Notes: generated by a model from the sequence alone, not told the origin. A stretch of DNA of 64,000 bases from Minisyncoccia bacterium (GCA_041752275.1 JBGSHK010000015.1:64641-128640); one strand, 5' to 3'. Positions 7,458 to 50,713 are shown, counted from the first letter of the stretch. A program made the numbers and translations.

Positions 7458-9821
7458 ATGTCTAAAAAGAACACAAGAAAATACACAAAAAGAAATATTA
7501 AAGATAATGTCCCAGAAGAGGCTAAAGGCTTTATCGGTAAAGGTTTTTTAAGTGGTATAAGACAAACGTTTATACCCAACGATTCATATGTAAAGAACAC
7601 AGTACTCTCACTTGTCTTTTTTGTATTATTTTTATTTTTTAGTTTATCAGCTATTGGTTTAGGTGGATCATTTGGCAGATTTACATATAAAAGTTTCTCA
7701 TATTTATTTGGTTATGGATATTATCTACTTCCTTTACTTTTTCTAATACAATCATACTTTTATGCAATACATAAAGAAAGCAACTCTTTTGCCAAAACTA
7801 AAATAATATTTTCTATACTATTAATAATATCTGTACTGGGAATACTAGAATTATCTGTATTAAATGCAGGTGGTGCTTTAGGGGGTATAATATCAATTCC
7901 AATACTAAACCTTTTTGACACTGTCTTAAGTTATATATTTTTAACAGCAGTGGCTTTTGTATCTTTAATTATATTATTTGAATATTCATTTAATATTAAA
8001 AAAACAAATAATGAGAATGATATCGAGGGGGCGGAAGATGTTGACAGTGATAAAGCTGAAGATAAATCTGTAAAAGACAGAAAGATGAAAATAATAGGTG
8101 CCGATATGGATAATGAAAATGTAAAAGACATAAAAAAAGATGTCTTAAAAGACAATAAAAAACCTAGTGAAATAAAGCTAGAAAAAGAAATGTCTGATAT
8201 AAACAACAGTCTTATAAAATCAAACACTATGACTTTAACAGGTAAAGAATACACTCCTCCTCCTTTATCTTTACTTGAAAGAGATAAAGGTAAACCAGAA
8301 GTTGGTGATATAAAAGCCAACGCAAACATTATAAAAAGAACACTTCAAAACTTTGGTGTACAAGTAGAAATGGACGAAATATCTGTCGGACCTTCTATAA
8401 CTAGATATGCCCTTAAGCCAGCTGAAGGAGTGAAGCTTTCAAAAATACTCGGGCTTCAAAACAACTTATCTCTCGCCCTAGCAGCGCACCCTATACGTAT
8501 AGAAGCCCCTATTCCCGGTAAGTCTCTTGTTGGTATAGAAGTACCAAACTCAACAAAAACTATGGTTGGTTTAGGTTCATTACTTTCACAACCTGAGTAT
8601 CAAAACTCACCAGACCCTCTACTCATAGCACTCGGTAAAGGTGTGTCAGGAAAAATGTATTATGAAAACCTTGCAAAGATGCCTCATGCTCTTATTGCTG
8701 GTACAACAGGTTCAGGAAAGTCAGTTATGATACACAATGTTGTTACTTCTTTATTATACAAGAACTCACCTGAAAACTTGAGATTTATTTTCATAGATCC
8801 TAAGCGAGTTGAGTTAACACTATATAACAAAATCCCCCACCTTTTAACACCAGTTATAACTGATCCAAAGAAGGCTATACTTGCACTAAAATGGGCAGGA
8901 AAAGAAATGAGTCGTAGATATGACATATTGGAAAAACACTCAGTTCAAAACATAGATTCATATCATAAAAACATATTAGCACCAGCTGTTGAAGAATTTA
9001 AAAAGTCCGGAAAAACTGATGACAGTAAAAATGATCTTCCTGATGCTATGCCATATATAGTTATCATTATCGATGAGTTGGCAGACATCATGCAAGCATA
9101 TCCTCGTGAACTTGAGTCAGGTATAGTACGCCTTGCGCAAATGTCTCGTGCCGTTGGTATACATCTTATACTTTCAACACAAAGACCGTCAGTGAACGTG
9201 ATAACCGGTCTAATCAAAGCCAACATTCCGACCCGTATAGCTCTTCAAGTTGCCTCTCAAATAGACTCTAGAACCATCTTGGATGCCCGTGGAGCAGAAG
9301 AATTACTAGGATCTGGAGATATGTTGTTCTTAACAGGAAGAATGTCTAGTGCTCAACGTGTTCAATCCCCTAACATCACAGAGGCTGAGACTAAAAAAAT
9401 AGTTAAATATCTAGTAGATAACATGGATTATATACCCGATACTATACAGCTTGGACCCCAAGAACAACAAGAAAACTCTGGCACAAACGCCATTTTTGCA
9501 TCTGCTTTTAACACAGGAGGTATGGAAGATGATGATATGGATGACGATGATGACTTGTATGAAGATGCAAAAGCCGCTGTTATAGAAGCAAAAAAAGCCT
9601 CAACTTCATATCTTCAAAGAAAACTGAGGGTTGGATACTCACGTGCAGCTCGTCTTATGGATATACTTGAAAAAAGAGGTGTTGTTGGACCTGCTGATGG
9701 CGCAAAACCAAGAGAAATACTTTTAGCCGACACAAATACTCAAAATGATCAATCTATAGAAACTGACACCGAAACAGAAAATACTTTAGAAAACCCTAAA
9801 AAAACTGACGGTCAAAGCTAA
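7458..9821 (+). CDS. ftsK: DNA translocase FtsK/SpoIIIE
   Basis: N-terminal TM segments, a long charged linker, a motor domain with Walker A GTTGSGKSV and Walker B IIIDELAD, and a C-terminal gamma winged-helix (YLQRKLRVGYSRAARLMDILEKRGVVGP). Confidence 0.85.
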   Translation: MSKKNTRKYTKRNIKDNVPEEAKGFIGKGFLSGIRQTFIPNDSYVKNTVLSLVFFVLFLFFSLSAIGLGGSFGRFTYKSFSYLFGYGYYLLPLLFLIQSYFYAIHKESNSFAKTKIIFSILLIISVLGILELSVLNAGGALGGIISIPILNLFDTVLSYIFLTAVAFVSLIILFEYSFNIKKTNNENDIEGAEDVDSDKAEDKSVKDRKMKIIGADMDNENVKDIKKDVLKDNKKPSEIKLEKEMSDINNSLIKSNTMTLTGKEYTPPPLSLLERDKGKPEVGDIKANANIIKRTLQNFGVQVEMDEISVGPSITRYALKPAEGVKLSKILGLQNNLSLALAAHPIRIEAPIPGKSLVGIEVPNSTKTMVGLGSLLSQPEYQNSPDPLLIALGKGVSGKMYYENLAKMPHALIAGTTGSGKSVMIHNVVTSLLYKNSPENLRFIFIDPKRVELTLYNKIPHLLTPVITDPKKAILALKWAGKEMSRRYDILEKHSVQNIDSYHKNILAPAVEEFKKSGKTDDSKNDLPDAMPYIVIIIDELADIMQAYPRELESGIVRLAQMSRAVGIHLILSTQRPSVNVITGLIKANIPTRIALQVASQIDSRTILDARGAEELLGSGDMLFLTGRMSSAQRVQSPNITEAETKKIVKYLVDNMDYIPDTIQLGPQEQQENSGTNAIFASAFNTGGMEDDDMDDDDDLYEDAKAAVIEAKKASTSYLQRKLRVGYSRAARLMDILEKRGVVGPADGAKPREILLADTNTQNDQSIETDTETENTLENPKKTDGQS

Positions 9822-17885: not shown

Positions 17886-20132
17886 CTATTTCACCCTACT
17901 ATCTATCTCCGCATTTGTACCGGTTGTAATATCTGTGGTCATGGAATTATTTTTTAATAATAATTTATCCCCTGTAAAACTATCTGTTGCTGTTATGAAT
18001 GGTTCAATAATAGTTACCGGGATCTGACCTGTTTGTGTTAAGGTTGGTGTAAAACCTATATCAAAATAAAATTCTTTTATAGACTTATCTATACCAACAC
18101 CTGCCTCTATATCACCTAAACTTATGGATATTTCTCGGGTTGATTTATTATATTTTAAAGAAGATGATGGTATATTTGAACTATAAGAATTTTTCCATAT
18201 AGAATTTGGTGGTAATTTTGCAATAAATACAACATCTTTAATAGTGTTTGCTGTATTTGAAATATTTCCAGTATACCTAAAAACAGTTTCTTTATTTACC
18301 TCAGGAGAATATGCTCCTCCAAAATATGATAGATTTGAAATAAATAAGACTTCAGTTTTTAATCTTAATTGTTTTTTTGTACTTGCAACAATTGATTCAG
18401 GAACTCTATTTTCACCAAGTCTTTGAGCATTCACGTTTACAGTAAGCTCAGAAGTTGCTCTTCTTAATGTTTTTATAAAGTTTTCTTCACTTGAAATAGT
18501 TCCTATACTGAAACTCATCTCTCTGGTTTCTCCCGGTGATATAACCGCCAACCTTGAATTTGTTGATTTATCCCAAAAAATAACATCTCTATTTGAATCA
18601 TAAAATCCATTATCAGTCTTAACACTTCTCCTATCTATTAAAACTCCTCCCAACAAAACCTCAACAATAACATCTGTAACACTGTCAGGTAATGTGTTTG
18701 TTACAGATAAATCAATTCTCAAATCTTGATCATATTGAACTGATTTATTTTCAGAACTATCTCCATCTATTAACAATTTAGTAATAACAAATGGCTTACG
18801 TATAGAAACTTGATTATCTTGAGTTGATAAAACTGTAAGCATTTCTTTAGTTTTAGGATCTTCTATGCCAATAATAAATCTAAAATTTTTGTCTACATTT
18901 ATCTCTCCTAAGAATTTACCCTTAAGACTAATGGTTGTTGAAGATAGAGAATTTATACTTTCAAATGACCAAGTGTTATTATTTGATACAGGTTTTATAT
19001 TTGATTCCAATAACTTATATCCAAAAGGATACTCTATCATCAACTGTATATTTTCTAATATTTCCTCTGTATTTGAATTTATTTCAATATCAAAATTTAA
19101 CTCTTGATTGTTATTGATTTCTTTTATATTTGATATAACAATATTTATAGGACTACCAACTATAAAAACACTTACATTTTTTTCAGTTTGAAAAATTGTA
19201 GACGAATCATTTATATTAAACTCATAAGAATAATTTATATTTTTTTTAATATTTTGCTCACCAAAAAAAACAACAGAGTTTTTCTTTCTTATTGTCTCAC
19301 CTGGTTTTATTGTACCAACAGAAATTCTTTCATTTGTTAAATCTTGATTTTTATTAAATGGAGATCTTGAACCACTTGGATATTGTATTATTAAATCTGA
19401 CAATATTAATTCTGAATTATTATTATTTGTAATATCTATAATAAAATCAGAAACTTCCCCACTTTTAACAGAAACGGGTCCTGTAACTTTTATATCTATT
19501 TTATTTGTAGATATGGTATTTTTTCCATTTAATATGTTTATATATGTATAGAAAAAAGAACCTACAAAAATAATAAATACAAATATAAATATAATAAGAC
19601 TAAAGTTAAAGTTATTTTTTTTCTTTTTTGATAGTTTTATATCATCTTGCATATCTGCGGTTTCACCTATTTTTACAGTTTTTAAATTAGCATGATAATT
19701 TGGCTGAAAATTATTTTTATTTTCAACAGTTTTATTTAATTTAAGATTTGGGTATAAACTATTTATGTTTTTAGCATCAAGCTGTGCCTGTGCTATTTTT
19801 AAAGTCGCAGTTGTTTTATCTAACTTATTTTCAATATCATCAGCTCTTTTATTGCTATAAAAATCAGCATTGTTATTATTTTCAAATCTATTGTTTAAAA
19901 AATCATTTATGGATTCTTTTTCTTCTTCTGGTTTTATTTTAACACTTTTACTATCTTTATCATCTTTACTATCTTTATTTTTTATAATTTCTTTTTCCCA
20001 ATTTTTAGGTATATTTAAATCATGCTTATGTAAAGAGTTTAGTTTAGAAGTATCATCAGTTAAAGATCTTGAATATAGCTTTTGTTTTAACTTATTTATT
20101 TTATTTACATCTTCATCACTTAGATTATTCAT
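17886..20132 (-). CDS. hypothetical large membrane-anchored protein (charged N-terminal region, 1 TM, ~550-aa extracytoplasmic region)
   Basis: 748 aa with a single TM (FSLIIFIFVFIIFVGSFFYTYI); Asn/Ile/Ser-rich, no recognisable catalytic motif. Confidence 0.35.
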   Translation of the reverse strand: MNNLSDEDVNKINKLKQKLYSRSLTDDTSKLNSLHKHDLNIPKNWEKEIIKNKDSKDDKDSKSVKIKPEEEKESINDFLNNRFENNNNADFYSNKRADDIENKLDKTTATLKIAQAQLDAKNINSLYPNLKLNKTVENKNNFQPNYHANLKTVKIGETADMQDDIKLSKKKKNNFNFSLIIFIFVFIIFVGSFFYTYINILNGKNTISTNKIDIKVTGPVSVKSGEVSDFIIDITNNNNSELILSDLIIQYPSGSRSPFNKNQDLTNERISVGTIKPGETIRKKNSVVFFGEQNIKKNINYSYEFNINDSSTIFQTEKNVSVFIVGSPINIVISNIKEINNNQELNFDIEINSNTEEILENIQLMIEYPFGYKLLESNIKPVSNNNTWSFESINSLSSTTISLKGKFLGEINVDKNFRFIIGIEDPKTKEMLTVLSTQDNQVSIRKPFVITKLLIDGDSSENKSVQYDQDLRIDLSVTNTLPDSVTDVIVEVLLGGVLIDRRSVKTDNGFYDSNRDVIFWDKSTNSRLAVISPGETREMSFSIGTISSEENFIKTLRRATSELTVNVNAQRLGENRVPESIVASTKKQLRLKTEVLFISNLSYFGGAYSPEVNKETVFRYTGNISNTANTIKDVVFIAKLPPNSIWKNSYSSNIPSSSLKYNKSTREISISLGDIEAGVGIDKSIKEFYFDIGFTPTLTQTGQIPVTIIEPFITATDSFTGDKLLLKNNSMTTDITTGTNAEIDSRVK

Positions 20133-20171
20133 ATCTATATTATAAACTTATGTATTGATTGACGCAAAGAT

Positions 20172-20753
20172 TTAAAAATTTAACTTTTTATGCAAATTTT
20201 GTATAGTTAGATTTTTATTTTCAAAATATATAGACAAATTTTCAGATTCTTTATTTAATATATTTTCAATATCAACTTTTTCAACAAAACCTTGTAAACC
20301 CCTTATGTAAACAATAAAAAAAATATTAACTATTTCCAAAAAATGTTTCTTGTTTGGTTTGTCACTTTTAACTATATAGATAATAAATTTAGATAAGTGA
20401 ATAATCATATTATATATTTGAGTATTAATATCATCAAAATAATCTCTTTCGTCATTAAAAAACAAACTTTCAGCTATACGTAAAAACTTAACAAGACTCT
20501 TTGAGTTGGCAAATAAAAACTTATGGTTAACATCAGTTAATCTAAAAAATTCTTTTCCGCGAACTATGGCTATTTTGTTAACTGAAAAAGCCTTAATATT
20601 TCCTTTTAGTTTGGATGATTCTTTTCTGAAACTAGTAGCTATGATATTTATAACACCAAATTTATCAGAAAAAGCCTTTATCAAACAGTCATTTTCTTGA
20701 ATGTTTTTTATATCGAATATGATACAGTCTGTTTCATATATGGTGTAGACCAT
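20172..20753 (-). CDS. recO: putative DNA repair protein RecO (short)
   Basis: N-terminal OB-fold pattern resembling RecO (DCIIFDIKNIQENDCLIKAFSDKFGVINIIATSFRKESSKLKGNIKAFSVNKIAIVRGKEFFRL); 193 aa. Confidence 0.4.
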   Translation of the reverse strand: MVYTIYETDCIIFDIKNIQENDCLIKAFSDKFGVINIIATSFRKESSKLKGNIKAFSVNKIAIVRGKEFFRLTDVNHKFLFANSKSLVKFLRIAESLFFNDERDYFDDINTQIYNMIIHLSKFIIYIVKSDKPNKKHFLEIVNIFFIVYIRGLQGFVEKVDIENILNKESENLSIYFENKNLTIQNLHKKLNF

Positions 20754-20758
20754 AAAAT

Positions 20759-23700
20759 TTAAGCTTTATTTACTATAATTTCAAAATCATCTGATTGTGT
20801 TATTTGTATATCATTAGAATTTACAGATTGTTTTATCATATCTATATATACTGAAATATCTTCTTTTATTTTTATTGTTAAATTTATTTTGTCTAAAGGA
20901 ACAAGATTTAATTCTTTTCTCTTTGACTGTATTTCTCTAATTATATCCCTAACTAGACCCTCCACTCTCAGGTCTTCGGTTATGTTTGTATCTAATGCAA
21001 CTTCATCGCCTTCTGTTATGTTTTTGACATTTAATTCATCTTTTATAATATCCGTATAAATATTTTCAATAATTTCTTTTGATACAGATACGGACTCTAA
21101 AGGCTGTCTTACTTTTATACCCGCTTTATTTCGCAAAGCTAAACCTTGCTCTATTATTTGGCGAGTTTTTGACATTTTCTCAAGTACTGAAACATCTTGT
21201 ATATCTTTAAAATCTGGCCAGTTTTCTAGGTGAACAGATTCTTTTATATCTTTTACTTTGGCAAAATCTTTTATAAAAAGATATATCTCCTCAGCCATAA
21301 AGGGTGTAAACGGAGCTATAACTTTAGATAAATTTAATAAAATAATCAAAAGATTTTTAGTAACTATCGAAGCGTCTCCTTCTTCGTCTTTAAAACGATC
21401 ACGACAACGGCGAAGATACCAAGTCGAAAGCTCTTCAACAAAATCCAATATAGGTTTTGCAGCTCTGTCTGTTTGATAAATATCCAAGTTCTCTGTCGCG
21501 TCTTTTATAAGAGTATTGAGTTTTATATCTATCCACGCATCCAACTCATTTTTATTTGAAAAATCGTTTTCAAGATTTATATCAAGATTTTTAACGCCAT
21601 ACATTTCTAAAAATGAAATAGTATTTGAAATCTTATTGAAAAACTTATTATTTATCTCGTTCAACATCTTTTGTGAAAATGCATATTCCTCGGCTCGAGT
21701 CACGGGAGATGAGAGTAAGAAATATCGAAGTGAGTCGGCCCCAAACTCCTCTACTACAGGCACAAGCTCGGCATAGTTACCTAAACTCTTAGACATCTTT
21801 TTACCGTCCTCAGCCAAAACCATACCACTTACTATTACATTTTTAAACGGAGCCTTATCAAATAAAGCCGCTGACATAAATAACATATAGTAAAACCAGC
21901 CACGAGTTTGATCCAAACTCTCAGCTACAAAGTCTACTGTAAGGTTTTGCTTAAAATCTTTTTGCTCTGACTCGTTAAAATCAAATGGATAATGAACAGA
22001 TGAAAAAGGCATTGACCCAGCATCATACCAAACATCAAGTACTTCAGATAATCTTGTATATGTTTCCCCATTTTCCACAAAAACAACTTCATCTATATGT
22101 GGTCTGTGAAAATCAAGCTCGTACTCAGTGTTGTGTGGTATGAATGCAAAATCTATCTTTGCATACTCAGAAGGTTTTGTTTTTTTATAAACTTTTTTTT
22201 CTTTTATTATATCTTCAAGATTATTACCGTCGGCAATATGATGAGTATTGTATACACAACCTTCATGGGTAACTATTAATATATTTTTATCTTTATTTTC
22301 TTTATCTGTTTCATATAAGAACTCGGCAACTCGTTTTTTTACATCGAGAAGACTTTCACCTTTTGGAAATGATTTACTAAACTTTTCTGATATATTTATT
22401 GCATATGTGTTATATATATCATCACCTTGACCATCCAAATCACCATATTGTTGTTCTATGAGCCTCGCATCTATTTTTATCTCTATATCTTTTCCTAATT
22501 TATCTTTTACAACTTGTTTTACTATAGCTGCAGTTTCTCTTGTTCGAACTATTGGAGAAGAATAAATCACATCTGGTATATTATTTTCTGCTATCATTTT
22601 CTCTACTGAAATACGAACATCTTCTTTTCCTTTATCGGTAAGATGATGTCGACTTGAAAACTCTAGTCCTGAACTCATAACAGATTCTATAAGATGAGTT
22701 GCCTCACCGTGTCTCATCGCTGTGTATGTATTTCTTCTTGTTTTACTTTTTATTTCATCAACTGAACCAAGACAGATATATTTATTTACAGACTCTTCAT
22801 TTGAAGACTTCCAAACTGGAAGTGGTGTTCCCCAATAGCGACTACGTGACACTGCCCAGTCACGGTTATTTTCCAACCATGAATGAAGTCTCTTATGTCC
22901 AATCTCATCTGGATACCAGTTTATACTGTTGTTTATTTCTATCATTCTATCCTTAACGGCTGTGGTTTTTATAAACCAAGATGATGTAGCATAGTTTAAC
23001 AAAGGTGTTTTACATCTCCAACAATGAGGATAACTATGAGTGTACTTTTCTTTTGCAAATAAGTACCCGTTGTGAGCAAGATATTTTATAACTTCAATAT
23101 CAGCTTTAGAGTGATCGTCTGACGGTTTTACTTGGCCAGAAAAATCTTTAACTTCAACCGCAAAGTCACCGTGAGTTGTTACATGTTTTATAACCGGCAA
23201 ACCCTCTCTTTGAGCCAGCTTCATATCATCGTCACCAAAGGCTGGAGCTATGTGTACTACACCCGTTCCGTCTGTATCAGTTACAAAATCACCGCTGTAT
23301 ATTTTCCAAGTTTTATCTGTTTTTAAATCTTGGTAATAATCAAATACAGGTTGATATGATAAACCAAGAAGCTCTTCACCTTTTATTTCTTTTATAACAG
23401 AAAATTGTTCACCTTCTTTTTTTAACGTGTCGATTTTTTCAAGAGATGATTTTAAAATAATTATTTTCTTTGAACCTGTGTCTACTTGTAAGTAACTAAA
23501 ATCTTTGTTTATTGCTAATGCCACATTTCCAGGTAGTGTCCAAGGTGTAGTTGTCCAAGCTATGATTGATGAATCTTTATATTCTCCATCAAGAATGTTG
23601 AAATATACATATTCTGAAAGATCGGCAATATCTTTATACCCCTCTGTCACCTCATAGTTTGATAACACTGTCTCACAATGCGGACACCATGGCATAATTT

Positions 23701-24208
23701 TATAGCCCTCATACACCAAACCTTTTTTGTGCAATTCTTTGAAAGCCCACAGATTTGATTCCATGAAAGATGCATCTAGTGTTCTGTAATCATTTTCCAT
23801 ATCTACCCAACGACCCAACTTTGGAATAATCTTTTTCCAGTCATCGCGAAATTTGAAAACTGAAGCTCTGGCTGTTTCGTTGAATTTTCCAACACCAAAT
23901 TCTTCAATATCTTTTTTATCTTTAAAACCTAGAGTTTTTTCTGCCAAACTTTCTATCGGTAGACCATGAGTATCCCAACCCCAAGAACGAGGTACGTTAT
24001 AGCCTCTCATGGTTTTGTAACGAGGATACATATCTTTTATGGCCGAAGGTAAGGCATTTCCAAAGTGAGGAAGACCTGTAGCATATGGAGGTCCGTCATA
24101 ATAACGAAAAACTGCTTGATCCTTATTTTTATCAAGACTTTTTTGAAAAATGTTGTTATCCTGCCAAAATTTTAGTATTGCTGATTCACGCTCATTTGGG
24201 GTTTTCAT
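20759..24208 (-). CDS. ileS: isoleucyl-tRNA synthetase with an inserted histidine-phosphatase (PGAM-family) domain
   Basis: IleRS signature GPPYATGLPHFGNAL (a HIGH-motif variant, HFGN), WGWDTHGLPIE, a CP1 editing region, DVWYDAGSMP and KMSKS (GKKMSKSLGN). Residues ~490-665 form a complete histidine phosphatase fold (RHGEATH ... SSPIVRTRETA ... IVTHEG) inserted between the WGTPLP and DVWYDAG core motifs. Confidence 0.8.
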   Translation of the reverse strand: MKTPNERESAILKFWQDNNIFQKSLDKNKDQAVFRYYDGPPYATGLPHFGNALPSAIKDMYPRYKTMRGYNVPRSWGWDTHGLPIESLAEKTLGFKDKKDIEEFGVGKFNETARASVFKFRDDWKKIIPKLGRWVDMENDYRTLDASFMESNLWAFKELHKKGLVYEGYKIMPWCPHCETVLSNYEVTEGYKDIADLSEYVYFNILDGEYKDSSIIAWTTTPWTLPGNVALAINKDFSYLQVDTGSKKIIILKSSLEKIDTLKKEGEQFSVIKEIKGEELLGLSYQPVFDYYQDLKTDKTWKIYSGDFVTDTDGTGVVHIAPAFGDDDMKLAQREGLPVIKHVTTHGDFAVEVKDFSGQVKPSDDHSKADIEVIKYLAHNGYLFAKEKYTHSYPHCWRCKTPLLNYATSSWFIKTTAVKDRMIEINNSINWYPDEIGHKRLHSWLENNRDWAVSRSRYWGTPLPVWKSSNEESVNKYICLGSVDEIKSKTRRNTYTAMRHGEATHLIESVMSSGLEFSSRHHLTDKGKEDVRISVEKMIAENNIPDVIYSSPIVRTRETAAIVKQVVKDKLGKDIEIKIDARLIEQQYGDLDGQGDDIYNTYAINISEKFSKSFPKGESLLDVKKRVAEFLYETDKENKDKNILIVTHEGCVYNTHHIADGNNLEDIIKEKKVYKKTKPSEYAKIDFAFIPHNTEYELDFHRPHIDEVVFVENGETYTRLSEVLDVWYDAGSMPFSSVHYPFDFNESEQKDFKQNLTVDFVAESLDQTRGWFYYMLFMSAALFDKAPFKNVIVSGMVLAEDGKKMSKSLGNYAELVPVVEEFGADSLRYFLLSSPVTRAEEYAFSQKMLNEINNKFFNKISNTISFLEMYGVKNLDINLENDFSNKNELDAWIDIKLNTLIKDATENLDIYQTDRAAKPILDFVEELSTWYLRRCRDRFKDEEGDASIVTKNLLIILLNLSKVIAPFTPFMAEEIYLFIKDFAKVKDIKESVHLENWPDFKDIQDVSVLEKMSKTRQIIEQGLALRNKAGIKVRQPLESVSVSKEIIENIYTDIIKDELNVKNITEGDEVALDTNITEDLRVEGLVRDIIREIQSKRKELNLVPLDKINLTIKIKEDISVYIDMIKQSVNSNDIQITQSDDFEIIVNKA

Positions 24209-35649: not shown

Positions 35650-35650
35650 T

Positions 35651-35733
35651 TGCGCTGGGGGAGATTTGAACTCCCACACCCTTGCGGGCGCTACCACTAA
35701 AAGGTAGTAAGTCTACCTTTTCATTACCTGCGC
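35651..35733 (-). tRNA. type-II (long variable arm) Leu-like tRNA with anticodon UUA (would read UAA/UAG); possible suppressor or pseudo-tRNA
   Basis: Minus strand: acceptor GCGCAGG/CCAGCGC (one A-A mismatch), discriminator A73, Leu-like D-loop AAAAGGTAGA, anticodon stem CTACC/GGTAG with loop TTTTAGT (U33, anticodon 34-36 = TTA), long variable arm CGCCC-GCAA-GGGTG, canonical T-arm GGGAG-TTCAAAT-CTCCC. Confidence 0.45.
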
Positions 35734-35800
35734 ATAGTATAAGGTTACTATAGTTGTATTTGTATATCAAATAGGAATATGATATATTATTTTTACATAA

Positions 35801-43526: not shown

Positions 43527-43613
43527 GGAGGAGTGGCAGAGAGGTCGATTGCACCTGTCTTGAAAACAGGAGGGCTCTAACGGGTCCCGTGAGTTCGAAT
43601 CTCACCTCCTCCG
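43527..43613 (+). tRNA. tRNA-Ser (anticodon UGA)
   Basis: Acceptor GGAGGAG/CTCCTCC, anticodon stem CCTGT/ACAGG with loop CTTGAAA, long variable arm, T-arm GTGAG-TTCGAAT-CTCAC, discriminator G. Confidence 0.8.
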
Positions 43614-45071
43614 CACGGTAAGACTATCAGCTTGATTTAACATCAAATTGAATGGAGAACGCAAGGTAAAACCTAGCGTTTTTTCATTTAATACACAGTT
43701 CTGAAGTAAGAAACCAAGAAATTGGCGCTTTTCTTCAACTTCGGAACTAATAAATATCTCTTTTGCTCGTTTTGCTATATTTAATGTTGTATTTGCTGTG
43801 ATATAGAAGTGTTCGTCCGCATCAGAGTGGTCCTTCATTTGGTCCAACACATCAGCTTGTTTCTCTTTGTACTCTTTCAAAAAGCTGTCATACATTTCAT
43901 CCGTAATACGACCGTCGAGCTTATCTTCATACATCTTCTTTATCCTTGCTTCATATTTATCGTGTTCAGTCTTGAGTGAGTTTATGCTTTGTCGGTAAAA
44001 TCTATTTTCATTTTCACCAATCTCCTTCAACGCTTCGGTAATTTCACCAATCTTTTTATCTGAAAGCTTGAAATCGAGCGCTTTGTAAACCTGCTCCAAA
44101 AGCATATCTTCAGTTACAGAGACCCTTTTACAGTCTTTGTACCCTGAACAACTGTAGTAGGTATATTTTTCTTTTTTAAGTTGCCCACCAATTACACCTC
44201 CACATTTAGCACATACAATAAGACCCCTAAAGATAAAAGGTTTTGAAGCATACTTTGTGGGAACTTTATTATGTCTTTCCATTACCTCTTGGCATTTATC
44301 AAACAGTTCCTTTGAAATAATTGGTTTATAAGCATGTCTGTACCGTAAATCATGAGTTCTTGAGTAGGCATAACCATAGTAAAAACTATCATTCAATATC
44401 TTGAATATCATAGCTTGATTTACCCTTTCATTGACCCTGCTTCTAAAACCTATTTTATACATTCTATCAGCGAGGGTTTTTACAGACACATCACCTTTCG
44501 CATATTCCTCAAAGATACGAACTATGAAATGAGCCTTGTCATCAGGCACCACATCAATCCTACGCATCCTTAATGGATTATCATTATACAAACTCTTGTA
44601 GCCAATGGCTGGCATTCCCGTAATTTCACCATCCTCTCTCATTTTGTCGTGTTTTCGTTTAAGGTTATCACTCAATTGCAACACATAACTTTTAGCAAAC
44701 ATAACGCCCATATCCCAACGCAATATATCAGCACTGTTTGACTTCTTATTTATAACAAGATTTTCTCTATAAAAATGCAACTCAACTTTATCTTCCCTTC
44801 GTAACTCGTCAAAGATAACACTCTCGCGAAAACTTCTTTGTAATCGGTCTACAGTATCCACAACAACAGCTATGGTTTCTTTTGACTTTTTTATTATTTC
44901 AATAATTTCTTGAAACTTTATTCTATACCCTTTCGTTGAACTTTCTTTCAGTTTAAATGTTTTCCACTCTTCCAAACCCTTACCTTTAACATAATCAAGG
45001 ATACGGGACAGCTGTGCATCATTACTATCTTGGTTTTTGTCACTTTCTCTGGCTAAAATAATTGCTTTCAT
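43602..45071 (-). CDS. large serine recombinase (phage-integrase-type resolvase/recombinase with zinc ribbon)
   Basis: N-terminal resolvase domain with a catalytic Ser (AIILARESDKNQDS), a central recombinase domain and a C-terminal Cys-rich zinc ribbon (CAKCGGVIGG...YYSCSGYKDC); the stop codon overlaps the tRNA-Ser 3' end by 12 nt. Confidence 0.85.
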   Translation of the reverse strand: MKAIILARESDKNQDSNDAQLSRILDYVKGKGLEEWKTFKLKESSTKGYRIKFQEIIEIIKKSKETIAVVVDTVDRLQRSFRESVIFDELRREDKVELHFYRENLVINKKSNSADILRWDMGVMFAKSYVLQLSDNLKRKHDKMREDGEITGMPAIGYKSLYNDNPLRMRRIDVVPDDKAHFIVRIFEEYAKGDVSVKTLADRMYKIGFRSRVNERVNQAMIFKILNDSFYYGYAYSRTHDLRYRHAYKPIISKELFDKCQEVMERHNKVPTKYASKPFIFRGLIVCAKCGGVIGGQLKKEKYTYYSCSGYKDCKRVSVTEDMLLEQVYKALDFKLSDKKIGEITEALKEIGENENRFYRQSINSLKTEHDKYEARIKKMYEDKLDGRITDEMYDSFLKEYKEKQADVLDQMKDHSDADEHFYITANTTLNIAKRAKEIFISSEVEEKRQFLGFLLQNCVLNEKTLGFTLRSPFNLMLNQADSLTVRRR

Positions 45072-45535
45072 TTGAATAGTGATATTATTGAAATAATAAT
45101 TGCAATTAAAGATAAAATCAGCGTTACAGGATTTTCTGTTGCTTTGTTTTTAAAATACTCCCAACCACTTTTTCCTTTAGTTGTTAATACAATACTTTCG
45201 GTTAACTCTTCAGTTACATCATAACTAAAGCTTGAGCCATTTTTTGTTTCTATTACTGGAAATGTTTTTTGAGTGCCAATAACTATTAAACCATCTAATT
45301 CCATTCTTTTTAATTCAAACATTATTTCATTTTTCCAACTCAACTCAAAAATACCATCAGGAGAATATACGGGGTATTTATCATCATATTTTTTTATGAT
45401 AAACCCATAATCAGGAAAAACTAAAGGGTCTTCAGATATAGATTGGTATTCTTCAGGGATTTCAAAGAGATATTCACTCCTAGATATTTTACTACCTTCT
45501 AACTCTTTTAATAATTTTATAAGTCTATTCCTCAT
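45068..45535 (-). CDS. hypothetical protein with C-terminal TM, translationally coupled to the recombinase
   Basis: 155 aa; 4-nt overlap with the recombinase start; C-terminal hydrophobic helix. Confidence 0.35.
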   Translation of the reverse strand: MRNRLIKLLKELEGSKISRSEYLFEIPEEYQSISEDPLVFPDYGFIIKKYDDKYPVYSPDGIFELSWKNEIMFELKRMELDGLIVIGTQKTFPVIETKNGSSFSYDVTEELTESIVLTTKGKSGWEYFKNKATENPVTLILSLIAIIISIISLFK

Positions 45536-45543
45536 ATAGCAGT

Positions 45544-45723
45544 TTATTTTGTAGTACTTAATTTATTCAAAAAGGCTTCAAAGTCCGTCTTCTCTATACG
45601 AAACTCTTTGCCTATTTTATATGCTTTTAATTTCTTTGCATCAATGTAACGATAAATAGTCATTATATTGAAGCCTAGCTTTTCTGCTAAATCTTTAGCT
45701 GTGTAGAAGTCTTTTTCTTTCAT
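45544..45723 (-). CDS. excisionase-family/MerR-like HTH DNA-binding protein (putative Xis)
   Basis: 59-aa ORF below the ORF-track cutoff (MKEKDFYTAKDLAEKLGFNIMTIYRYIDAKKLKAYKIGKEFRIEKTDFEAFLNKLSTTK); matches the excisionase-type HTH pattern. Confidence 0.5.
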   Translation of the reverse strand: MKEKDFYTAKDLAEKLGFNIMTIYRYIDAKKLKAYKIGKEFRIEKTDFEAFLNKLSTTK

Positions 45724-45750
45724 AATTTATTTTTATATTATTGTTATTAA

Positions 45751-46905
45751 TTATACTTTACTATTCTTTACATTGCAATCTTCAATGTCGGACAACCTGA
45801 AAGGTTTAAAATCATCAATAGCATCCTTTATTTGTCTTACCCAGTCGTGGTATGTTTTACCAGAAATCTCGTCTAGGAGCTTCAAATCATCAGCTATACG
45901 ATACCAAGTCCTAGATGTTGCGTATCTCTCAACCACAGCCCTAATATCCCTTATTCCCTCCTTACTTAAGACCCTTAGTCCTACTAGATACAGTGCATCT
46001 TTAGGTTTTGTATCAGGTCTGTTTTTAAAGATTGCTTCTAGTGTCTTTTTGGGATTACTTTCAACATCAAATAAGAATAGATTTTTCCCTGTTATTAACT
46101 CATCCCAATAATTTATCAATATCTTCTGACAAACATCCTTCTTGAATATATCAGCAAAAGTTGGATTTTCTTTCAACCCTAAACCCTTAAGAATTGCATT
46201 CATTTTTACCTTTTTTGTAAGTCTAGCTTCAATACGCAACACTTCTTTTTTATCTTTTTTTGTCAAAGTTTCAAAGAGTGATAGTTGAAGTGGATTTTGA
46301 TCCTTATCAATAGCTCGCTTATTACCTTTCTTTAGATCCTGAACTTTATCATACACAACAAGAGAATGAGAGTTTGTATAGAACTGAAGTGAGTGACCGT
46401 TATTCCTAAAACTATCTTTATTAAGATCCATTTTCTGACTTACATCAATCTTATGTAATTCGTTAATAACAAAACCAGAAGTATATCCTTTTGTAAACTC
46501 TATGTTCTTTGAGGGGTGAAAGACCGACACTTTTGCATTTCTTAAATCTTCTAATTTAACGTATACAAACATTTCAGTCATTGCTTCTTGTAGATTTACA
46601 ATTACCCTTTCAAAATCTTTTTCTTGGACCTCGTCAACATTGTTTCCATAAGCCATTTTTGCTACAGAAAACTCTATTTTGAGCGGTATTTCATTACCGT
46701 TTTTTGTCGGTCTTTTCATCAGTGTAATTCTTGGTTTGTAAAAACCTTCTTTCTTATCTGTGGCGGTAGGATTATTTACACATTTAATGAGATAATTTCC
46801 TGACATTTTAAGAATATTCGCATTAGGAGTAAAAGCTTCGGGTCGAAGTCTATAGTAGCCTCTCGGTATCGTTAATATTACTGTGTCTAGCATATACATT
46901 TTCAT
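45751..46905 (-). CDS. putative replication initiation protein (Rep_trans-like)
   Basis: 384 aa; the segment HSLQFYTNSHSLVVYDKVQDL resembles the Rep_trans active-site RxYDK region; the mobile-element context fits. Confidence 0.35.
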   Translation of the reverse strand: MKMYMLDTVILTIPRGYYRLRPEAFTPNANILKMSGNYLIKCVNNPTATDKKEGFYKPRITLMKRPTKNGNEIPLKIEFSVAKMAYGNNVDEVQEKDFERVIVNLQEAMTEMFVYVKLEDLRNAKVSVFHPSKNIEFTKGYTSGFVINELHKIDVSQKMDLNKDSFRNNGHSLQFYTNSHSLVVYDKVQDLKKGNKRAIDKDQNPLQLSLFETLTKKDKKEVLRIEARLTKKVKMNAILKGLGLKENPTFADIFKKDVCQKILINYWDELITGKNLFLFDVESNPKKTLEAIFKNRPDTKPKDALYLVGLRVLSKEGIRDIRAVVERYATSRTWYRIADDLKLLDEISGKTYHDWVRQIKDAIDDFKPFRLSDIEDCNVKNSKV

Positions 46906-47182
46906 TACTTATTTTATTTTTATAAATCAAAACCTCTTCTGCTTTTGTTATAATTGCCTGTTCAATATCCAAAGCAATCTTTCTGTTTATCGGATGAAAA
47001 ACATTGAAGTTTTTACCGTTCAGGTTTTTGGTCGGATAAGTTACTCGATATCCACTTCCATCTAATTTTGTATGAATACCGATTGAGCCAAGATACAGAC
47101 TATTCTCAATAACTAAACTTGCTATAGCTACAAGTCCATTATTTGGCTTTATTGGTATTATTTGTATTTCTGTTATTTTCAT
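46850..47182 (-). CDS. SpoVG-family protein
   Basis: MKITEIQIIPIKPNNGLVAIASLVIENSLYLGSIGIH...FHPINRKIALDIEQAII aligns with SpoVG (AIAS...HPIN) conserved blocks. Confidence 0.55.
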   Translation of the reverse strand: MKITEIQIIPIKPNNGLVAIASLVIENSLYLGSIGIHTKLDGSGYRVTYPTKNLNGKNFNVFHPINRKIALDIEQAIITKAEEVLIYKNKISNENVYARHSNINDTERLL

Positions 47183-47384
47183 ATAGATGTGGATTTACTC
47201 TTTTATCAACCTTCAACAACAATGCGAAAAAACCAAGTAGGTTGTTTCGGTCTATTTCGTTGAGTTCTTTCAACGACCAGTCCTTCTTTATTTCTTTTTT
47301 GTTATTGTTTTCGGACATAAAAAAACCTGTAAGGGTGTCTTACAGATTAATTTAATTGATGTTTACAAAAGTTTGTAAACTTTT

Positions 47385-48959
47385 CTAGGGTTTCAAATAC
47401 TTCTTATTTATGGATATTGATTTAGTAGTAATATCCAGAAAATCCTTGATTTTTGTATCTTGAGCTATGATACTGTTAACCTTTTTACCTGCCTGATAAA
47501 CCTTATTTTCAGAGACCTTTTCGCCAAACTTATAACCCCAATCATCAATTACCTCGTCATTTGCCCATATCTTATTTTCATCCTTGAACAAGGTCCTCAT
47601 CAGCTTATGAGGGTCGCTTTCTTCCTTTTTTGATATAAGTATTTCTTCATTGTTAAATGAAAGTTTACGTGTATTTTCATCAAACGAAAGCGATGACGGG
47701 TTCTTGATTTCTTTTTTTTCCTTACCTTGTTTCAGTCTAATCGTAAACAGAAAACCTCTATCGTATAAATCAAACATCTGTTTTGGACCGTATGAAAAAT
47801 CTTCGATTTCAAGATAGCCATCTTTTTCGAGAGATAACATTGTATGGACAAATAAAAACAAATTAATAGTGTCGTTTTTATTATTTCTGCTTATTTTAAA
47901 AGTATCATTTGTATCATTTCCAATGTATTCTGGTTCAAAATATGGATGACCTATTTCCAAATCATCTCTTTGATACTCTTCATATTTTTCTTGAATATGC
48001 TTTATCAAAATATCCCTTTGTTTTTTAAAACCAAAAAATTGAGTGTGCAATTGCAAAGATAAACCTTCAGAAAAGAAAGTTCCTGTTAAGCCCTTTTTAC
48101 TTAAACCGTGCAAATTATCATTAATGAAAGCTGTAAGATACTCATCTAGATACTTTTCTATTTTATCTGTTTTCTTTATAAATAAACCAAAATTAGTATA
48201 TTCAAAAATCAGTCTTGATAATTTTTGTTGACTATCTTCATGAAGAAAGTTTTCTGCTGTAAAACCACCTTTCTTTAGCTTTTCTCTATTATGTTTATAA
48301 AACATTAATAAAAACTTTTCTATATCTTCTGTATTCCATTTACCGCCGTCATATTCAGGTACTAATTTGTGGACCAACTCAATAAAATCTTCATCAGCTT
48401 GTTTGTCTAGTATTGCATCTCTATATTCTTTTACTGGCTGATGCTCAAGTTCAGAAAACTTACTATTATCAAAATCATCATCTTTTAACATGTTTTCAAG
48501 AAAAGCTCTTTGCTCATTACTCAAGCTACCGTATTTTTCAACATCGTTTCTATTCTCTTCGGTATCTTCAAGATATTCCTTCATTAATCTCCCTGAATAT
48601 TCAGATAAAAAACCTCCCTCAAGCAGACTGTAGTCAGCATCGCCATACACCAAGAAACTTTCTTCGTCGAGTTCTTTTCCTGTATTTAATAGGTAGTTAA
48701 GAATTGTAGGAGACCCTGTTTTGTCATGTATCCTTTGAGTCGATTGCTTAATGGCTTTATTTATATCATCTTCAATTGTTGCAATATCACTAGGATTTTT
48801 TGGTTCAGAGACAAAAACATGCTTACCATCAAGAGTAAAAACATTACTCCATAGTGTTGAAATATGCTTCTTTTTTAGTATCCAATAAAGAATGAAAAGT
48901 TCCTTTTCATTTAGGTAGTTTTTATCTTTGTTTTCTAAATCGATTGTCCAACTGTTCAT
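47385..48959 (-). CDS. hypothetical 524-aa cargo protein of the integrated element
   Basis: Long soluble, acidic protein with no recognisable catalytic motif; the largest gene inside the island. Confidence 0.35.
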   Translation of the reverse strand: MNSWTIDLENKDKNYLNEKELFILYWILKKKHISTLWSNVFTLDGKHVFVSEPKNPSDIATIEDDINKAIKQSTQRIHDKTGSPTILNYLLNTGKELDEESFLVYGDADYSLLEGGFLSEYSGRLMKEYLEDTEENRNDVEKYGSLSNEQRAFLENMLKDDDFDNSKFSELEHQPVKEYRDAILDKQADEDFIELVHKLVPEYDGGKWNTEDIEKFLLMFYKHNREKLKKGGFTAENFLHEDSQQKLSRLIFEYTNFGLFIKKTDKIEKYLDEYLTAFINDNLHGLSKKGLTGTFFSEGLSLQLHTQFFGFKKQRDILIKHIQEKYEEYQRDDLEIGHPYFEPEYIGNDTNDTFKISRNNKNDTINLFLFVHTMLSLEKDGYLEIEDFSYGPKQMFDLYDRGFLFTIRLKQGKEKKEIKNPSSLSFDENTRKLSFNNEEILISKKEESDPHKLMRTLFKDENKIWANDEVIDDWGYKFGEKVSENKVYQAGKKVNSIIAQDTKIKDFLDITTKSISINKKYLKP

Positions 48960-49030
48960 ACGCTTTACTTTACTTTACATTCCAATATAATTCAACGATA
49001 TATAGAAAAAGTTTTAGATTGTTCAATCAA

Positions 49031-49390
49031 TTATTTAACAGTTTTCTTTTTGAAGATTTGGCGTGTCATCAACCCTAATATAACAATACTGAAAAAAACA
49101 CTAATCTGAACATAGTAATTGGTCAGAGTCGCATAACTAGATAAATAAAACACTGCGACAAAAATACAATAATGCCACCATTTTGGCTTAATACTGTTTG
49201 GATTATTCTTACCTTTAGAGTAAAGCAACGCCATTCCCAACATAAGTATGACCATTACAACAATGACACCTAATCCTAATATCTTTTGCGTAGTGACATC
49301 CAACGAGTTACCTTCTAACATTGTTGCCAACGTCGCAATCCATCTGTAGTTTAGAACTATTAATAATATTAGGTAATTTCCCAATGGCAT
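49031..49390 (-). CDS. hypothetical membrane protein (3-4 TM)
   Basis: Hydrophobic profile only. Confidence 0.3.
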   Translation of the reverse strand: MPLGNYLILLIVLNYRWIATLATMLEGNSLDVTTQKILGLGVIVVMVILMLGMALLYSKGKNNPNSIKPKWWHYCIFVAVFYLSSYATLTNYYVQISVFFSIVILGLMTRQIFKKKTVK

Positions 49391-49506
49391 ATCTGTATAA
49401 TATCACCATATTTAATGATTTGCATCAAAATGCACTTTGGTTTACTTTTACTTTGGTATGTATTAAGTTATAATACCATTATTACTTTTAATCATAAAAA
49501 AATATT

Positions 49507-49965
49507 ATGGACACAATCCAAACGCCTAATCAGGCAACACCAATCATTAAAAAAAAATCTATATGGTCAACATTGATATGGATTGGTTACTTTATATCCA
49601 TGCTAGCGACACTTTCTAATTTTTTCCTTTTTCTAACATTAAGAATAACGGATGGTAAGGACATTATAACCTCATCAGATGGTACAAGTATTAGCTTGAA
49701 TGCGTCATTAATAGCCACTGCCATTACTTTAATAATTTATTCAATTTTAACTGTATATTGTATAAAAAGAAAAAAGTCTACCTTAAAACTGTTGCCTGTG
49801 CTTGAGGTTATTTTATATTTTGTAGGTATTGCAAGTGCCATAATAATTTTTCAACTAAATGACTTATCAATGGCATATCTTCTTGGACCGATAATAAGTG
49901 GTTTAATAAGACCAGCAATAGCGATATTTGTTATGTATAAAAACAAAGCTGATTACATTTCGTAA
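49507..49965 (+). CDS. hypothetical membrane protein (4 TM)
   Basis: Hydrophobic profile only. Confidence 0.3.
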   Translation: MDTIQTPNQATPIIKKKSIWSTLIWIGYFISMLATLSNFFLFLTLRITDGKDIITSSDGTSISLNASLIATAITLIIYSILTVYCIKRKKSTLKLLPVLEVILYFVGIASAIIIFQLNDLSMAYLLGPIISGLIRPAIAIFVMYKNKADYIS

Positions 49966-50159
49966 AACTGGCATTATTTTTAAAGCCTATAACAGTATTA
50001 GAACTGTATACGTACCTAAACAGTCGCATATAGTTTTTTTATTCCCAGAAATCCCAATTCTTGCTTAACGGCCGTCCAATTCACAGTTCTGAACGCATCT
50101 ACCCACTCCCGCTATGAGAAAATGAATACATACTTGTTATGTATTCATTTTTGATTATA

Positions 50160-50203
50160 GGAGGAGAGGAGGCCGACAGTTTTGCTTCCGTGTGAGATTC
50201 GAA
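50160..50203 (+). pseudogene. degenerate tRNA-Ser fragment (acceptor/D-region fused to the T-arm 5' half) at the right end of the island
   Basis: ggaggagaggaggccgacag...ccgtgtgagattcgaa versus tRNA-Ser GGAGGAGTGGCAGAGAGGTCGA...CCCGTGAGTTCGAA; the anticodon arm is missing. Confidence 0.45.
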
Positions 50204-50277
50204 AAGCTTTTCTATGTTTTGAGCGCTGTGGTGCGAAAAACGAGAAAAGGTATACTGAAGCTGTAAGCTTCGAATCT
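50195..50277 (+). repeat. structured repeat element, copy B (closing helix agattcgaa/ttcgaatct mimicking the tRNA-Ser T-loop)
   Basis: Same conserved core as copy A (cgaaaagcttttc...ttttgag...cgaaaaa...gagaaaaggtatactga-gaagc-tgtaa-gcttc); inserted in the T-loop position of the degenerate tRNA-Ser fragment. Confidence 0.6.
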
Positions 50278-50296
50278 ATCGTGCTATAATAACCCC

Positions 50297-50713
50297 ATGA
50301 ACTGGACCATATACGCCCTACTCTCTGCTGTATTTGCTGCACTTGTAGCAATATTTGGAAAGCTAGGTTTAAAAAATATTGATTCAACTTTAGCTACAAC
50401 TATACGTTCGATAGTTATGGCAATCTTTCTAATAATCACAGCATTCTCTTTAGGTAAGTTTAATTTTTTAAATACTATAGACAATAAAGCTTTGATATTT
50501 ATCATACTCTCAGGTGTGTCAGGTGCAATATCTTGGTTGTTTTATTTTTTAGCTATCAAACTCGGTCCTGTTAGTGCGGTAGCAGCCATAGATAGAACAA
50601 GTATAGTTTTTGTTTTTGTACTATCTGTGTTGTTTTTGAGTGAATCATTAACAGTATTAAAAAGTATAGGCGCACTTGCCATAGTAATCGGTGCTATATT
50701 AATGGCATTATAA
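50297..50713 (+). CDS. small EamA-like (DMT superfamily) membrane transporter
   Basis: 138 aa with 4 TMs and an EamA-like pattern (ALLSAVFAALVAIFGKLGL ... ISWLFYFLAIKLGP). Confidence 0.5.
   Translation: MNWTIYALLSAVFAALVAIFGKLGLKNIDSTLATTIRSIVMAIFLIITAFSLGKFNFLNTIDNKALIFIILSGVSGAISWLFYFLAIKLGPVSAVAAIDRTSIVFVFVLSVLFLSESLTVLKSIGALAIVIGAILMAL

Follow-up and report, generated by a model that had tools for sequence, protein, structure and literature searches.

The DNA considered here is a stretch of 64,000 nt (the window) from a Minisyncoccia bacterium (GCA_041752275.1, JBGSHK010000015.1:64641-128640), and the subject is the segment that lies in it directly 3' of a tRNA-Ser(UGA) gene. Positions 43615-50112 hold nine protein genes: a large serine recombinase, whose open reading frame (ORF) ends within the tRNA gene; a small membrane protein; a small helix-turn-helix protein of the HTH_17 family; a protein (Rep) that resembles rolling-circle initiators; a SpoVG-like protein; a backbone protein of ~55 amino acids (aa); a protein of 524 aa; and two further membrane proteins. 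The segment is, with good probability, an integrative mobile element of plasmid-like kind, ~6.5 kb long, that belongs to a Parcubacteria bacterium, of the Candidate Phyla Radiation (CPR), and was inserted by its own recombinase at the extreme 3' end of tRNA-Ser(UGA).

The insertion at tRNA-Ser(UGA) and its two ends

The genomes of relatives were found by scanning species-representative genomes with the flanking tRNA-binding protein; the close ones are named Candidatus Parcubacteria or Nomurabacteria, and loci fetched for comparison carry L-numbers (L015, for example, is CALRFG010000001.1). In L015 the site is empty: the order is RuvX, tRNA-Ser(UGA), EamA, with EamA 376 nt from RuvX and only the tRNA-Ser between them. 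The EamA proteins of L015 and the window are 92% identical, and in the window 6.5 kb lie between tRNA-Ser and EamA. On alignment, homology between the two covers the whole tRNA gene to ...CTCCTCCGC, breaks there, and restarts at ~50148 of the window. Five other genomes (L013, L017, L019, L021 and L022) have a short terminator hairpin directly after tRNA-Ser and no element; the window therefore carries an insertion relative to all six. A first-pass annotation of the window had proposed an integrative element at tRNA-Ser with a large serine recombinase, and had pointed to empty-site alleles as the way to check it and to syntenic copies in all relatives as the evidence to the contrary. The empty allele of L015 confirms the insertion and fixes both ends, and the same six genomes contradict universal synteny; the genes for the 119-aa and 152-aa membrane proteins fall within the inserted segment and are absent from the empty site.

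The far end of the element is located by comparison. When the element was searched by blastn against all fetched loci, six other elements proved to keep 50045-50112 at their far end: L102 (95% over 39 nt), L084, L086, L098, L142 and L144. An alignment of element ends is conserved to ...CATCTA(A/C)CCACTCCCGC, and the host sequences diverge beyond it. The junctions then read ...CTCCTCCGC/ACGGTAAG at attL and ...CCCACTCCCGC/TATGAG at attR, the slash marking the element boundary. Crossover at attL would lie at or near CCGC (43611-43614), the final bases of the tRNA, with a shared core of about these 4 nt. The P arm, on the element side of attR, copies the T-arm and acceptor of tRNA-Ser imperfectly; as it is kept in imperfect form across elements, it is not a decayed duplicate. 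The one match to the tRNA end in the window, a weak one (50093-50110, edit distance 5, with ~0.02 expected by chance in that interval), is this conserved attP arm, recognised only through comparison. Direct repeats in relatives are 13-24 nt long or lacking; L003 and L006 are bounded by exact repeats of the tRNA 3' end, of 24 and 18 nt respectively.

The first-pass annotation had put a degenerate tRNA-Ser at the far end. That did not hold: the sequence in question is conserved host DNA that is also present at empty sites, and the true element end is 50112. As a degenerate tRNA or att scar, 50160-50285 was rejected, since the Rfam tRNA model is silent (no match over 49000-50500 even at E<=10) and the motif is present in element-free genomes. 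Scores of the far-end stretch aligned to tRNA are at chance level, and the likeness is confined to GGAGGAG and a segment GAGATTCGAA. Conservation of the host sequence extends over 50148-50296, which adjoins tRNA-Ser in element-free genomes; 50160-50285 occurs at empty sites and is thus host sequence, not an integration scar.

This ~125-nt host motif is of some interest in itself. Copies are found at 50160-50285 (+) of the window, L015:9170-9299(-), L021:9226-9355(-) and L022:6092-6221(-), and in L019 and L017, placed 3' of tRNA-Ser and its terminator; in the window, L015 and L022 it is followed by EamA. Over six species RNAalifold predicts 37 pairs, of which 16 show compensatory changes, and there is no match in Rfam. 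It looks like a structured RNA, perhaps a cis-regulatory RNA or small RNA of this Parcubacteria clade that has yet to be described.

Three other loci (L016, L018 and L023) have the same tRNA-Ser(UGA) 3' end followed by a different shared sequence (..TTATCGGCRT.A.CC.., at ~9480-9490 in the locus coordinates of L016 and L018); a serine recombinase lies ~1.8 kb away in L018 and is only 27% identical. The tRNA-Ser site seems to be a hotspot for at least one other island family.

Table 1. Features of the element and its junctions (window positions)
Feature	Position	Strand	Basis or remark
tRNA-Ser(UGA), host gene and integration target	43527-43614	+	ARAGORN
Large serine recombinase, 489 aa in the integrated state	43602-45071	-	Pfam Resolvase, Recombinase, Zn_ribbon_recom
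155-aa tail-anchored membrane protein, right slot	45068-45535	-	stop overlaps recombinase start; C-terminal hydrophobic segment
HTH_17/excisionase-family DNA-binding protein, 59 aa	45544-45723	-	PF12728, TIGR01764
Rep, 380 aa, putative divergent G2P (Phage_CRI)/Rep_trans-like rolling-circle initiator or relaxase	45751-46893	-	Pfam matches of homologues; fold
SpoVG-like protein, 110 aa, optional backbone part	46850-47182	-	PF04026; overlaps Rep start by 44 nt
~55-aa backbone protein (59 aa in the window)	47139-47318	-	motif LxGFFxLLLKVDKRxNPxLY
Intergenic regulatory region	47324-47384	-	terminator scan, comparison
524-aa protein, first-gene slot	47385-48959	-	AF2, Foldseek
Promoter-like box TTGAAT-N17-TAAAGT with GTAAAG repeats	48960-48995	-	abuts first-gene ATG
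119-aa membrane protein, left slot	49031-49390	-	hydrophobic ORF; weak PADLOC KwaA match only, E 1.2e-3
152-aa membrane protein, left slot	49507-49965	+	hydrophobic ORF; no significant Pfam, PADLOC or NCBIfam match
Detached 3' end of the integrase ORF, tail REWVDAFRTVNWTAVKQELGFLGIKKLYATV and stop	50016-50111	-	in frame with recombinase only when ends are joined
attR element-side arm (P arm)	50045-50112	+	blastn and alignment; conservation ends at ...CACTCCCGC (50112)

The integrase reading frame and the attachment site

The recombinase matches PF00239 at residues 3-148 (41.2 bits against a cutoff of 23.3, with the serine visible in the motif ARES10), and PF07508 (52.1 bits) and PF13408 (36.8 bits), both over cutoff; it also matches the integrase family phrog_95 at E 4e-53. 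The overlap of its stop with the tRNA-Ser 3' end, noticed at first pass, is confirmed: the final 13 nt of the 489-aa ORF lie inside the tRNA, and the last four codons (RRR and stop) are the acceptor stem read backwards.

When the element ends are joined, 50112 to 43615, the ORF passes from 489 aa (...SLTVRRR, stop) to 517 aa (...SLTVREWVDAFRTVNWTAVKQELGFLGIKKLYATV, stop), gaining a conserved tail with the motif DAFRTVNW. In the integrated state the conserved last 31 codons stand at the opposite end of the element, 6.5 kb off. Thirteen elements, among them some with tRNA-Asn as target, encode the tail peptide at their far (left) end, as DA[FL]RT[VLI][ND]W and then xx[IV][KR]x[ED][LI]; in every case it is on the operon strand, with stop codons a few codons before it. 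The Val codon of ‘RTV’ varies (GTG, GTT, GTA, GTC). Over 16 codons and 66 pairs, the proportion of synonymous differences (pS) is 0.65 and of nonsynonymous differences (pN) 0.26, a ratio of 0.40, and extra states at the first, second and third codon positions number 18, 11 and 27, the third position being the most variable. The substitutions look like those of a coding sequence under purifying selection.

In L001 the tail motif forms the C-terminus of one contiguous 564-aa serine recombinase ORF, which would be the expected product of an attP-type junction between tandem elements. The locus in question (L001 2042-8760) is an unrelated island in tandem upstream of a family member at tRNA-His; the island carries an AAA_15/AAA_21 ATPase and several unassigned genes and ends with the 564-aa recombinase, the junction supplying its contiguous DAFRTLDW tail.

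From the conserved tail gained by the joined ORF and the contiguous copy in L001 we conclude that attP lies within the integrase ORF, ~31 codons before its stop, and that integration swaps the tail for the RRR and stop provided by the tRNA. L003 and L006 differ, in that the stop falls inside the 18-24-nt direct repeat; the ORF is therefore the same in both states.

Backbone, regulation and cargo of the family

The window element belongs to a Parcubacteria-wide family with a conserved backbone, which includes a promoter box, a palindrome and a hairpin. The family survey comprised 95 loci, and the gene order is the same in every context examined: a winged-helix protein as the first gene, a ~55-aa protein, an optional SpoVG, Rep, the HTH_17 protein, variable genes, and the serine recombinase. 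A recombinase on the same strand lies downstream in nearly every locus that has several kb after Rep (37 loci in all), at a distance from Rep of 180 nt to 7.7 kb. In 21 of the listed loci the end of the recombinase gene overlaps a convergent tRNA, for Ser-UGA, a second Ser, Asn, His or Gln. Relatives of Rep are encoded in at least 493 metagenome stretches and in only 2 of IMG/VR. Two slots are variable, the right one between the HTH_17 gene and the recombinase and the left one between the element end and the promoter of the first gene.

Rep has more than 600 homologues. Its ORF has 384 codons for amino acids, or 380 from the Met used by a 100%-identical database copy. The first-pass annotation had described a Rep_trans-like protein with an RxYDK segment; the likeness is borne out in part, by an invariant motif, matches of homologues and matches of its model to viral proteins; what is missing is any Pfam match of the window protein itself, which falls below the gathering thresholds of Rep_trans and Phage_CRI. 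Among 42 homologues, 8 match Phage_CRI (best E 1.2e-5) and 4 match Rep_trans (best E 0.018), and Y181-D182-K183 is invariant in 42 Rep sequences. This Y-D-K presumably takes the position of the catalytic R-x-Y-[DN]-K in Rep_trans (the RepD/G2P active site). Rep also matches the replication protein phrog_702 (E 1e-3). Its AlphaFold2 (AF2) model has a predicted local distance difference test score (pLDDT) of 87, and Foldseek against BFVD gives five matches, at template-modelling (TM) scores of 0.38-0.48: one is a G2P of Inoviridae (E 1.9e-6), and the other four are viral proteins without a name (E 2e-8 to 1.5e-5). No tblastn match was found in 50,697 GenBank phage records, and none in PLSDB plasmids.

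The 524-aa protein was said at first pass to have no recognisable domain, and by sequence it indeed has none: no match in Pfam, NCBIfam or PADLOC. Structure prediction, suggested for it as for Rep (where it gave the matches to viral proteins), does disclose one. The AF2 model (pLDDT 84) shows residues 419-524 (nt 47388-47705) as a winged helix of the OmpR/PhoB/ToxR type. The top 27 Foldseek matches in PDB are DNA-binding domains of ToxR, CovR, OmpR, PhoB, GlnR and similar proteins, nearly all at probability 0.85-1.0 (~1.0 for those of ToxR, CovR, OmpR and PhoB), with target TM scores of 0.5-0.7 for isolated domains and E of only 0.04-1. Pfam Trans_reg_C matches none of 54 members of the family; the N-terminal ~415 aa have no Pfam match in those members, no PDB match by sequence, and no Foldseek match in PDB outside the winged helix.

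The distribution of the 524-aa protein is narrow, and that of its C-terminal domain is wide. There are 78 homologues, all from CPR bacteria; an exhaustive profile search gave only ~28 full-length representatives, and an exact-protein look-up returned no contig. Its winged helix is 78% identical to the C-terminus of proteins of ~390 aa with an unrelated N-terminal region; as these are on contigs as long as those of the closest Rep homologues, they probably occupy the same slot. The profile of the family matched 583 representative proteins, in many of which (most of the best 150) the domain is C-terminal, and the lengths and N-terminal regions vary. Judged by position, fold and modularity, the most likely role of the 524-aa protein is that of a DNA-binding protein that regulates the element, with a sensor domain joined to an OmpR-type winged helix, and not that of cargo. 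A distant match of the family profile, P0287 (563 aa), ends in the same winged helix and has AbiTii (abortive-infection) at residues 268-431; it offers a lead rather than evidence that some proteins of the first-gene type may be sensors or effectors, not plain regulators.

The DNA on either side of the first gene is conserved as well. The promoter-like box is kept in L006, L011, L102, L114, L142 and L144, and in at least L102 and L114 it precedes a first gene without detectable similarity to the 524-aa protein. Beyond the other end of the gene lie a palindrome, AAAAGTTTACAAACTTTTGTAAAC at 47361-47384, conserved in L006, L009 and L011, and a hairpin with a T-run at 47324-47348, which abuts the ATG of the small (~55-aa) ORF and is present in eight related elements with differing stem sequences. 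In all elements checked, palindrome and covarying hairpin/T-run stand between the first gene and the Rep operon. In three independent assemblies (L007, L009 and L010) the contig begins just 5' of the ~55-aa gene, with the break at the first-gene slot, which points to a heterogeneous population or to repeats at that place. Contigs L007 and L008, both from run SRR28170465, are identical to the window.

The SpoVG-like protein matches PF04026 over residues 1-80 (37.2 bits against a cutoff of 29.6), which bears out the family given at first pass; as the NCBIfam SpoVG equivalog scores under its cutoff (31 against 108), it is a family member and not an orthologue of the chromosomal septation regulator. 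SpoVG adjoins Rep in 46 of the 95 related loci. Equivalents of the ~55-aa protein were matched by BLASTP in L001, L003, L009, L011 and L073. The HTH_17 protein, correctly recognised at first pass as excisionase-like, matches PF12728 (E 2.9e-13) and TIGR01764 ‘excise’ (45 bits against a cutoff of 28.8), and is found in nearly all related loci; it is a candidate directionality factor or regulator.

The accessory genes in the window are those of three small membrane proteins (155, 119 and 152 aa), all of them seen as such at first pass: the 155-aa ORF, with its hydrophobic C-terminus, is coupled to the recombinase start by overlap, and the other two are hydrophobic ORFs. The 155-aa protein matches nothing in Pfam, PADLOC or NCBIfam and has 14 homologues only, one of which (157 aa) stands between HTH_17 and the recombinase in L073. 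The proposal that the 524-aa and SpoVG-like genes are defence or anti-defence cargo is not sustained: both belong to the backbone, and wherever its context was examined, the 524-aa family keeps synteny with Rep, HTH_17 and the recombinase. Nor does any of the three membrane proteins fit a defence model; a PADLOC 2.0 search of the element proteins gave only a generic HTH_17 likeness to mad1 and weak matches to KwaA (E 1.2e-3) and DpdD (E 0.03). The variable genes of relatives are mostly restriction-modification systems: a PLD-helicase with an Eco57I-type methyltransferase in L001, a type IIG-like enzyme in L003, Dcm with HpaII in L009, and an HsdR_N-methyltransferase fusion with HsdS in L011. 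The left slot of relatives holds M78 peptidase, SocA/Panacea or DUF3800 genes.

With a G2P-like Rep beside small hydrophobic proteins, one might suppose a cryptic filamentous (inovirus-like) or other single-stranded DNA (ssDNA) prophage, replicated by Rep and with the small proteins as coat or assembly proteins. We think this very improbable. Inoviridae G2P is among the best structural matches, proteins with hydrophobic segments are there (59, 119, 152 and 155 aa), and 6.5 kb falls in the inovirus range; but Pfam and PHROGs scans found no pI/Zot-type morphogenesis ATPase or P-loop protein among the nine element proteins, and no capsid, morphogenesis or mating-pore genes in the element. Moreover, the membrane proteins are not conserved in the family, their slots holding restriction-modification genes elsewhere; and the scarcity of relatives in IMG/VR beside their abundance in metagenomes, like the lack of phage records matching Rep, speaks against it too.

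Elsewhere in the window, ARAGORN finds at 35650-35734 (-) a tRNA with anticodon UUA, which reads the UAA stop; it has the loop TT-TTA-GT, U33, a purine at 37 and a long variable arm, and is on paper an ochre-suppressor-type class II tRNA. The long housekeeping ORFs of the window read normally with standard stops. At 20759-24208 (-) is a 1149-aa class I aminoacyl-tRNA synthetase (tRNA-synt_1, Anticodon_1) with a His_Phos_1 domain inserted at residues 498-653. A 748-aa ORF at 17886-20132 (-) has no Pfam match at E<=1e-5 and lies in the stretch of lowest GC in the window (19001-21000, GC 0.22-0.23) apart from 41-42 kb.

Mobility, and comparison with known systems

If the segment is an integrative, plasmid-like element, its cycle might run as follows. 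The recombinase would excise a circle, probably aided by the HTH_17 protein as directionality factor, and excision would rebuild the 517-aa integrase gene; the G2P/Rep_trans-like Rep would nick an origin, for rolling-circle replication of the circle, production of ssDNA for transfer, or both; in a new cell, full-length integrase would insert the circle at the tRNA. Elements whose recombinase genes share ~72-82% of their nucleotides with this one are found at different tRNAs in different genomes, and close relatives so placed imply recent mobility.

Several results weigh against this reading of the element. Exact, ungapped, gapped and edit-distance searches of the window found no clean direct repeat of the tRNA-Ser 3' end, and for this reason the crossover is placed from the end of conservation. 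None of 82 newly fetched viral and metagenome loci (L076-L157) has the terminal overlaps of a circular or excised form; the attP pattern is absent from IMG/VR, and the exact 517-aa joined protein from the protein collection. Transfer machinery was found neither in the element nor among the ten largest ORFs elsewhere in the window. Rep has no match in PDB by sequence profile and no significant one by Foldseek, so that its assignment, drawn from weak sequence matches and predicted viral structures, is of moderate strength; the regulator proposed for the first gene draws only on its fold and place. Constraint on a recombinase-binding site could account in part for the conservation of the tail.

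Some of these results would also suit an immobilised remnant. In this view integration truncated the recombinase of an island now domesticated and left it unable to excise, like the archaeal ‘suicidal’ integrases, and the backbone is kept only for maintenance of the cargo. The integrase of the integrated state does lack its conserved C-terminal tail, the window lacks a clean direct repeat, and no excised form was detected in the 82 contigs, IMG/VR or the protein collection. A remnant is nevertheless improbable, as the backbone ORFs and the detached tail are all intact and under purifying selection, relatives at ~72-82% identity occupy different tRNAs and genomes, and the site is empty in several relatives.

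The route of transfer is the point at which a further explanation parts from the integrative, plasmid-like element, with which it otherwise overlaps. In an integrative and mobilizable element (IME), Rep would act mainly as a MOBT-type relaxase, nicking an origin of transfer (oriT), and the strand would leave the cell by way of a type IV secretion system (T4SS) of the conjugation type (monoderm MPF_FATA-like), encoded elsewhere in Patescibacteria genomes. Streptococcal IMEs join serine or tyrosine recombinases to Rel_PF02486/MobT relaxases related to rolling-circle initiators (PMC5357655), and a Rep family of this size that escapes Pfam would suit such a role. According to a 2025 survey, the T4SS clusters of Patescibacteria almost never come with a recognisable relaxase (PMC12102498), and the superfamily in which Rep is placed includes the MOBT relaxases of Firmicutes IMEs (PMC5357655); mobilisation is thus a live possibility. 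However, no gene for a coupling protein (TcpA, VirD4) or T4SS was seen in the element or among the ten largest ORFs of the window, and the likeness of Rep to filamentous-phage G2P is stronger than that to Rep_trans/MobT. Mobilisation as the main business of Rep is accordingly a minority view, though one worth holding in mind.

For the integrative, plasmid-like element that we prefer, full-text searches turned up no description of this CPR family, nor of a serine integrase whose ORF contains attP; as coverage of the literature was incomplete, the missing descriptions are absence of evidence only. A bolder proposal, put forward tentatively and with the odds rather against it, is that the family is the first bacterial serine-recombinase counterpart of archaeal attP-in-integrase systems; that the ~31-residue tail, made only from the circle, is a state switch; and that Rep, which Pfam does not see, is the ‘missing’ relaxase through which the widespread Patescibacteria T4SS could move DNA. 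The tail might, for example, be needed for integration, and the 489-aa tRNA-terminated form might be excision-competent or inert. The question raised is whether a state-dependent C-terminus controls directionality.

CPR mobile elements are almost uncharted, and CPR bacteria are without genetic tools. The family offers ends that are mapped, serine integrases each specific for one of at least four tRNAs, a replication module of small size, and a slot for cargo usually filled with restriction-modification genes; these parts are raw material for CPR vectors and integrases. Rep is a concrete candidate for the relaxase that the 2025 survey (PMC12102498) did not find next to Patescibacteria T4SS genes.

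Compared with known proteins, Rep is like G2P (Phage_CRI) and plasmid RepC and RepD (Rep_trans) in its invariant Y-D-K and in the viral proteins, a named G2P among them, that its predicted fold matches; it is unlike them in that nothing reaches curated thresholds or solved structures, and in its integrative setting, neither phage nor plasmid. The recombinase has the same three-domain architecture as the large serine integrases phiC31, Bxb1, A118, SPbeta SprA and CcrAB, and junction arms that are likewise imperfectly similar; attL and attR here share only ~4 nt, and some relatives have longer repeats of the tRNA 3' end. Large serine integrases are expected to work with a small, separate directionality factor. 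To our knowledge, attP lies outside the integrase ORF in those studied. Here the target, unlike theirs, is a tRNA 3' end, and the tRNA supplies the stop codon of the integrated state.

As whole elements, the closest known are the streptococcal Rep_trans/MobT IMEs; for the split gene, the closest are the archaeal SSV-type ‘suicidal’ tyrosine integrases. Like the streptococcal Rel_PF02486/MobT IMEs (PMC5357655, PMC5704250), the present elements are small and site-specific, with a recombinase module (serine or tyrosine in the streptococcal elements, serine here), one protein related to the Rep_trans superfamily, and variable cargo. By the usual marks of an IME, the recombinase module is present and Rep is a possible relaxase; no oriT was identified, and the element has no T4SS genes. 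The host, a Parcubacteria bacterium of the CPR, is different, there is no TcpA-type coupling protein, and the recombinase ORF spans attP; Rep stays under every Pfam and NCBIfam threshold and is nearer to phage G2P; and the backbone adds the winged-helix first-gene protein, the ~55-aa protein and often SpoVG.

With the SSV-type (type I) integrases of archaeal viruses and plasmids (PMC7253208, PMC8371274) the family shares an attP within the integrase ORF, a tRNA target, an ORF parted to opposite ends of the element, and the restoration of a contiguous gene by a tandem pair of elements (here L001). In 2020 this arrangement was described, for tyrosine integrases, as ‘so far restricted to archaea’ (PMC7253208). 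The archaeal tyrosine recombinases are split into two inactive halves, whereas here a bacterial serine recombinase has only its last ~31 residues detached, and the catalytic, recombinase and zinc-ribbon domains stay intact. The integrase ORF that crosses its att site extends the phenomenon described in archaea (PMC7253208) to bacteria and to serine recombinases.

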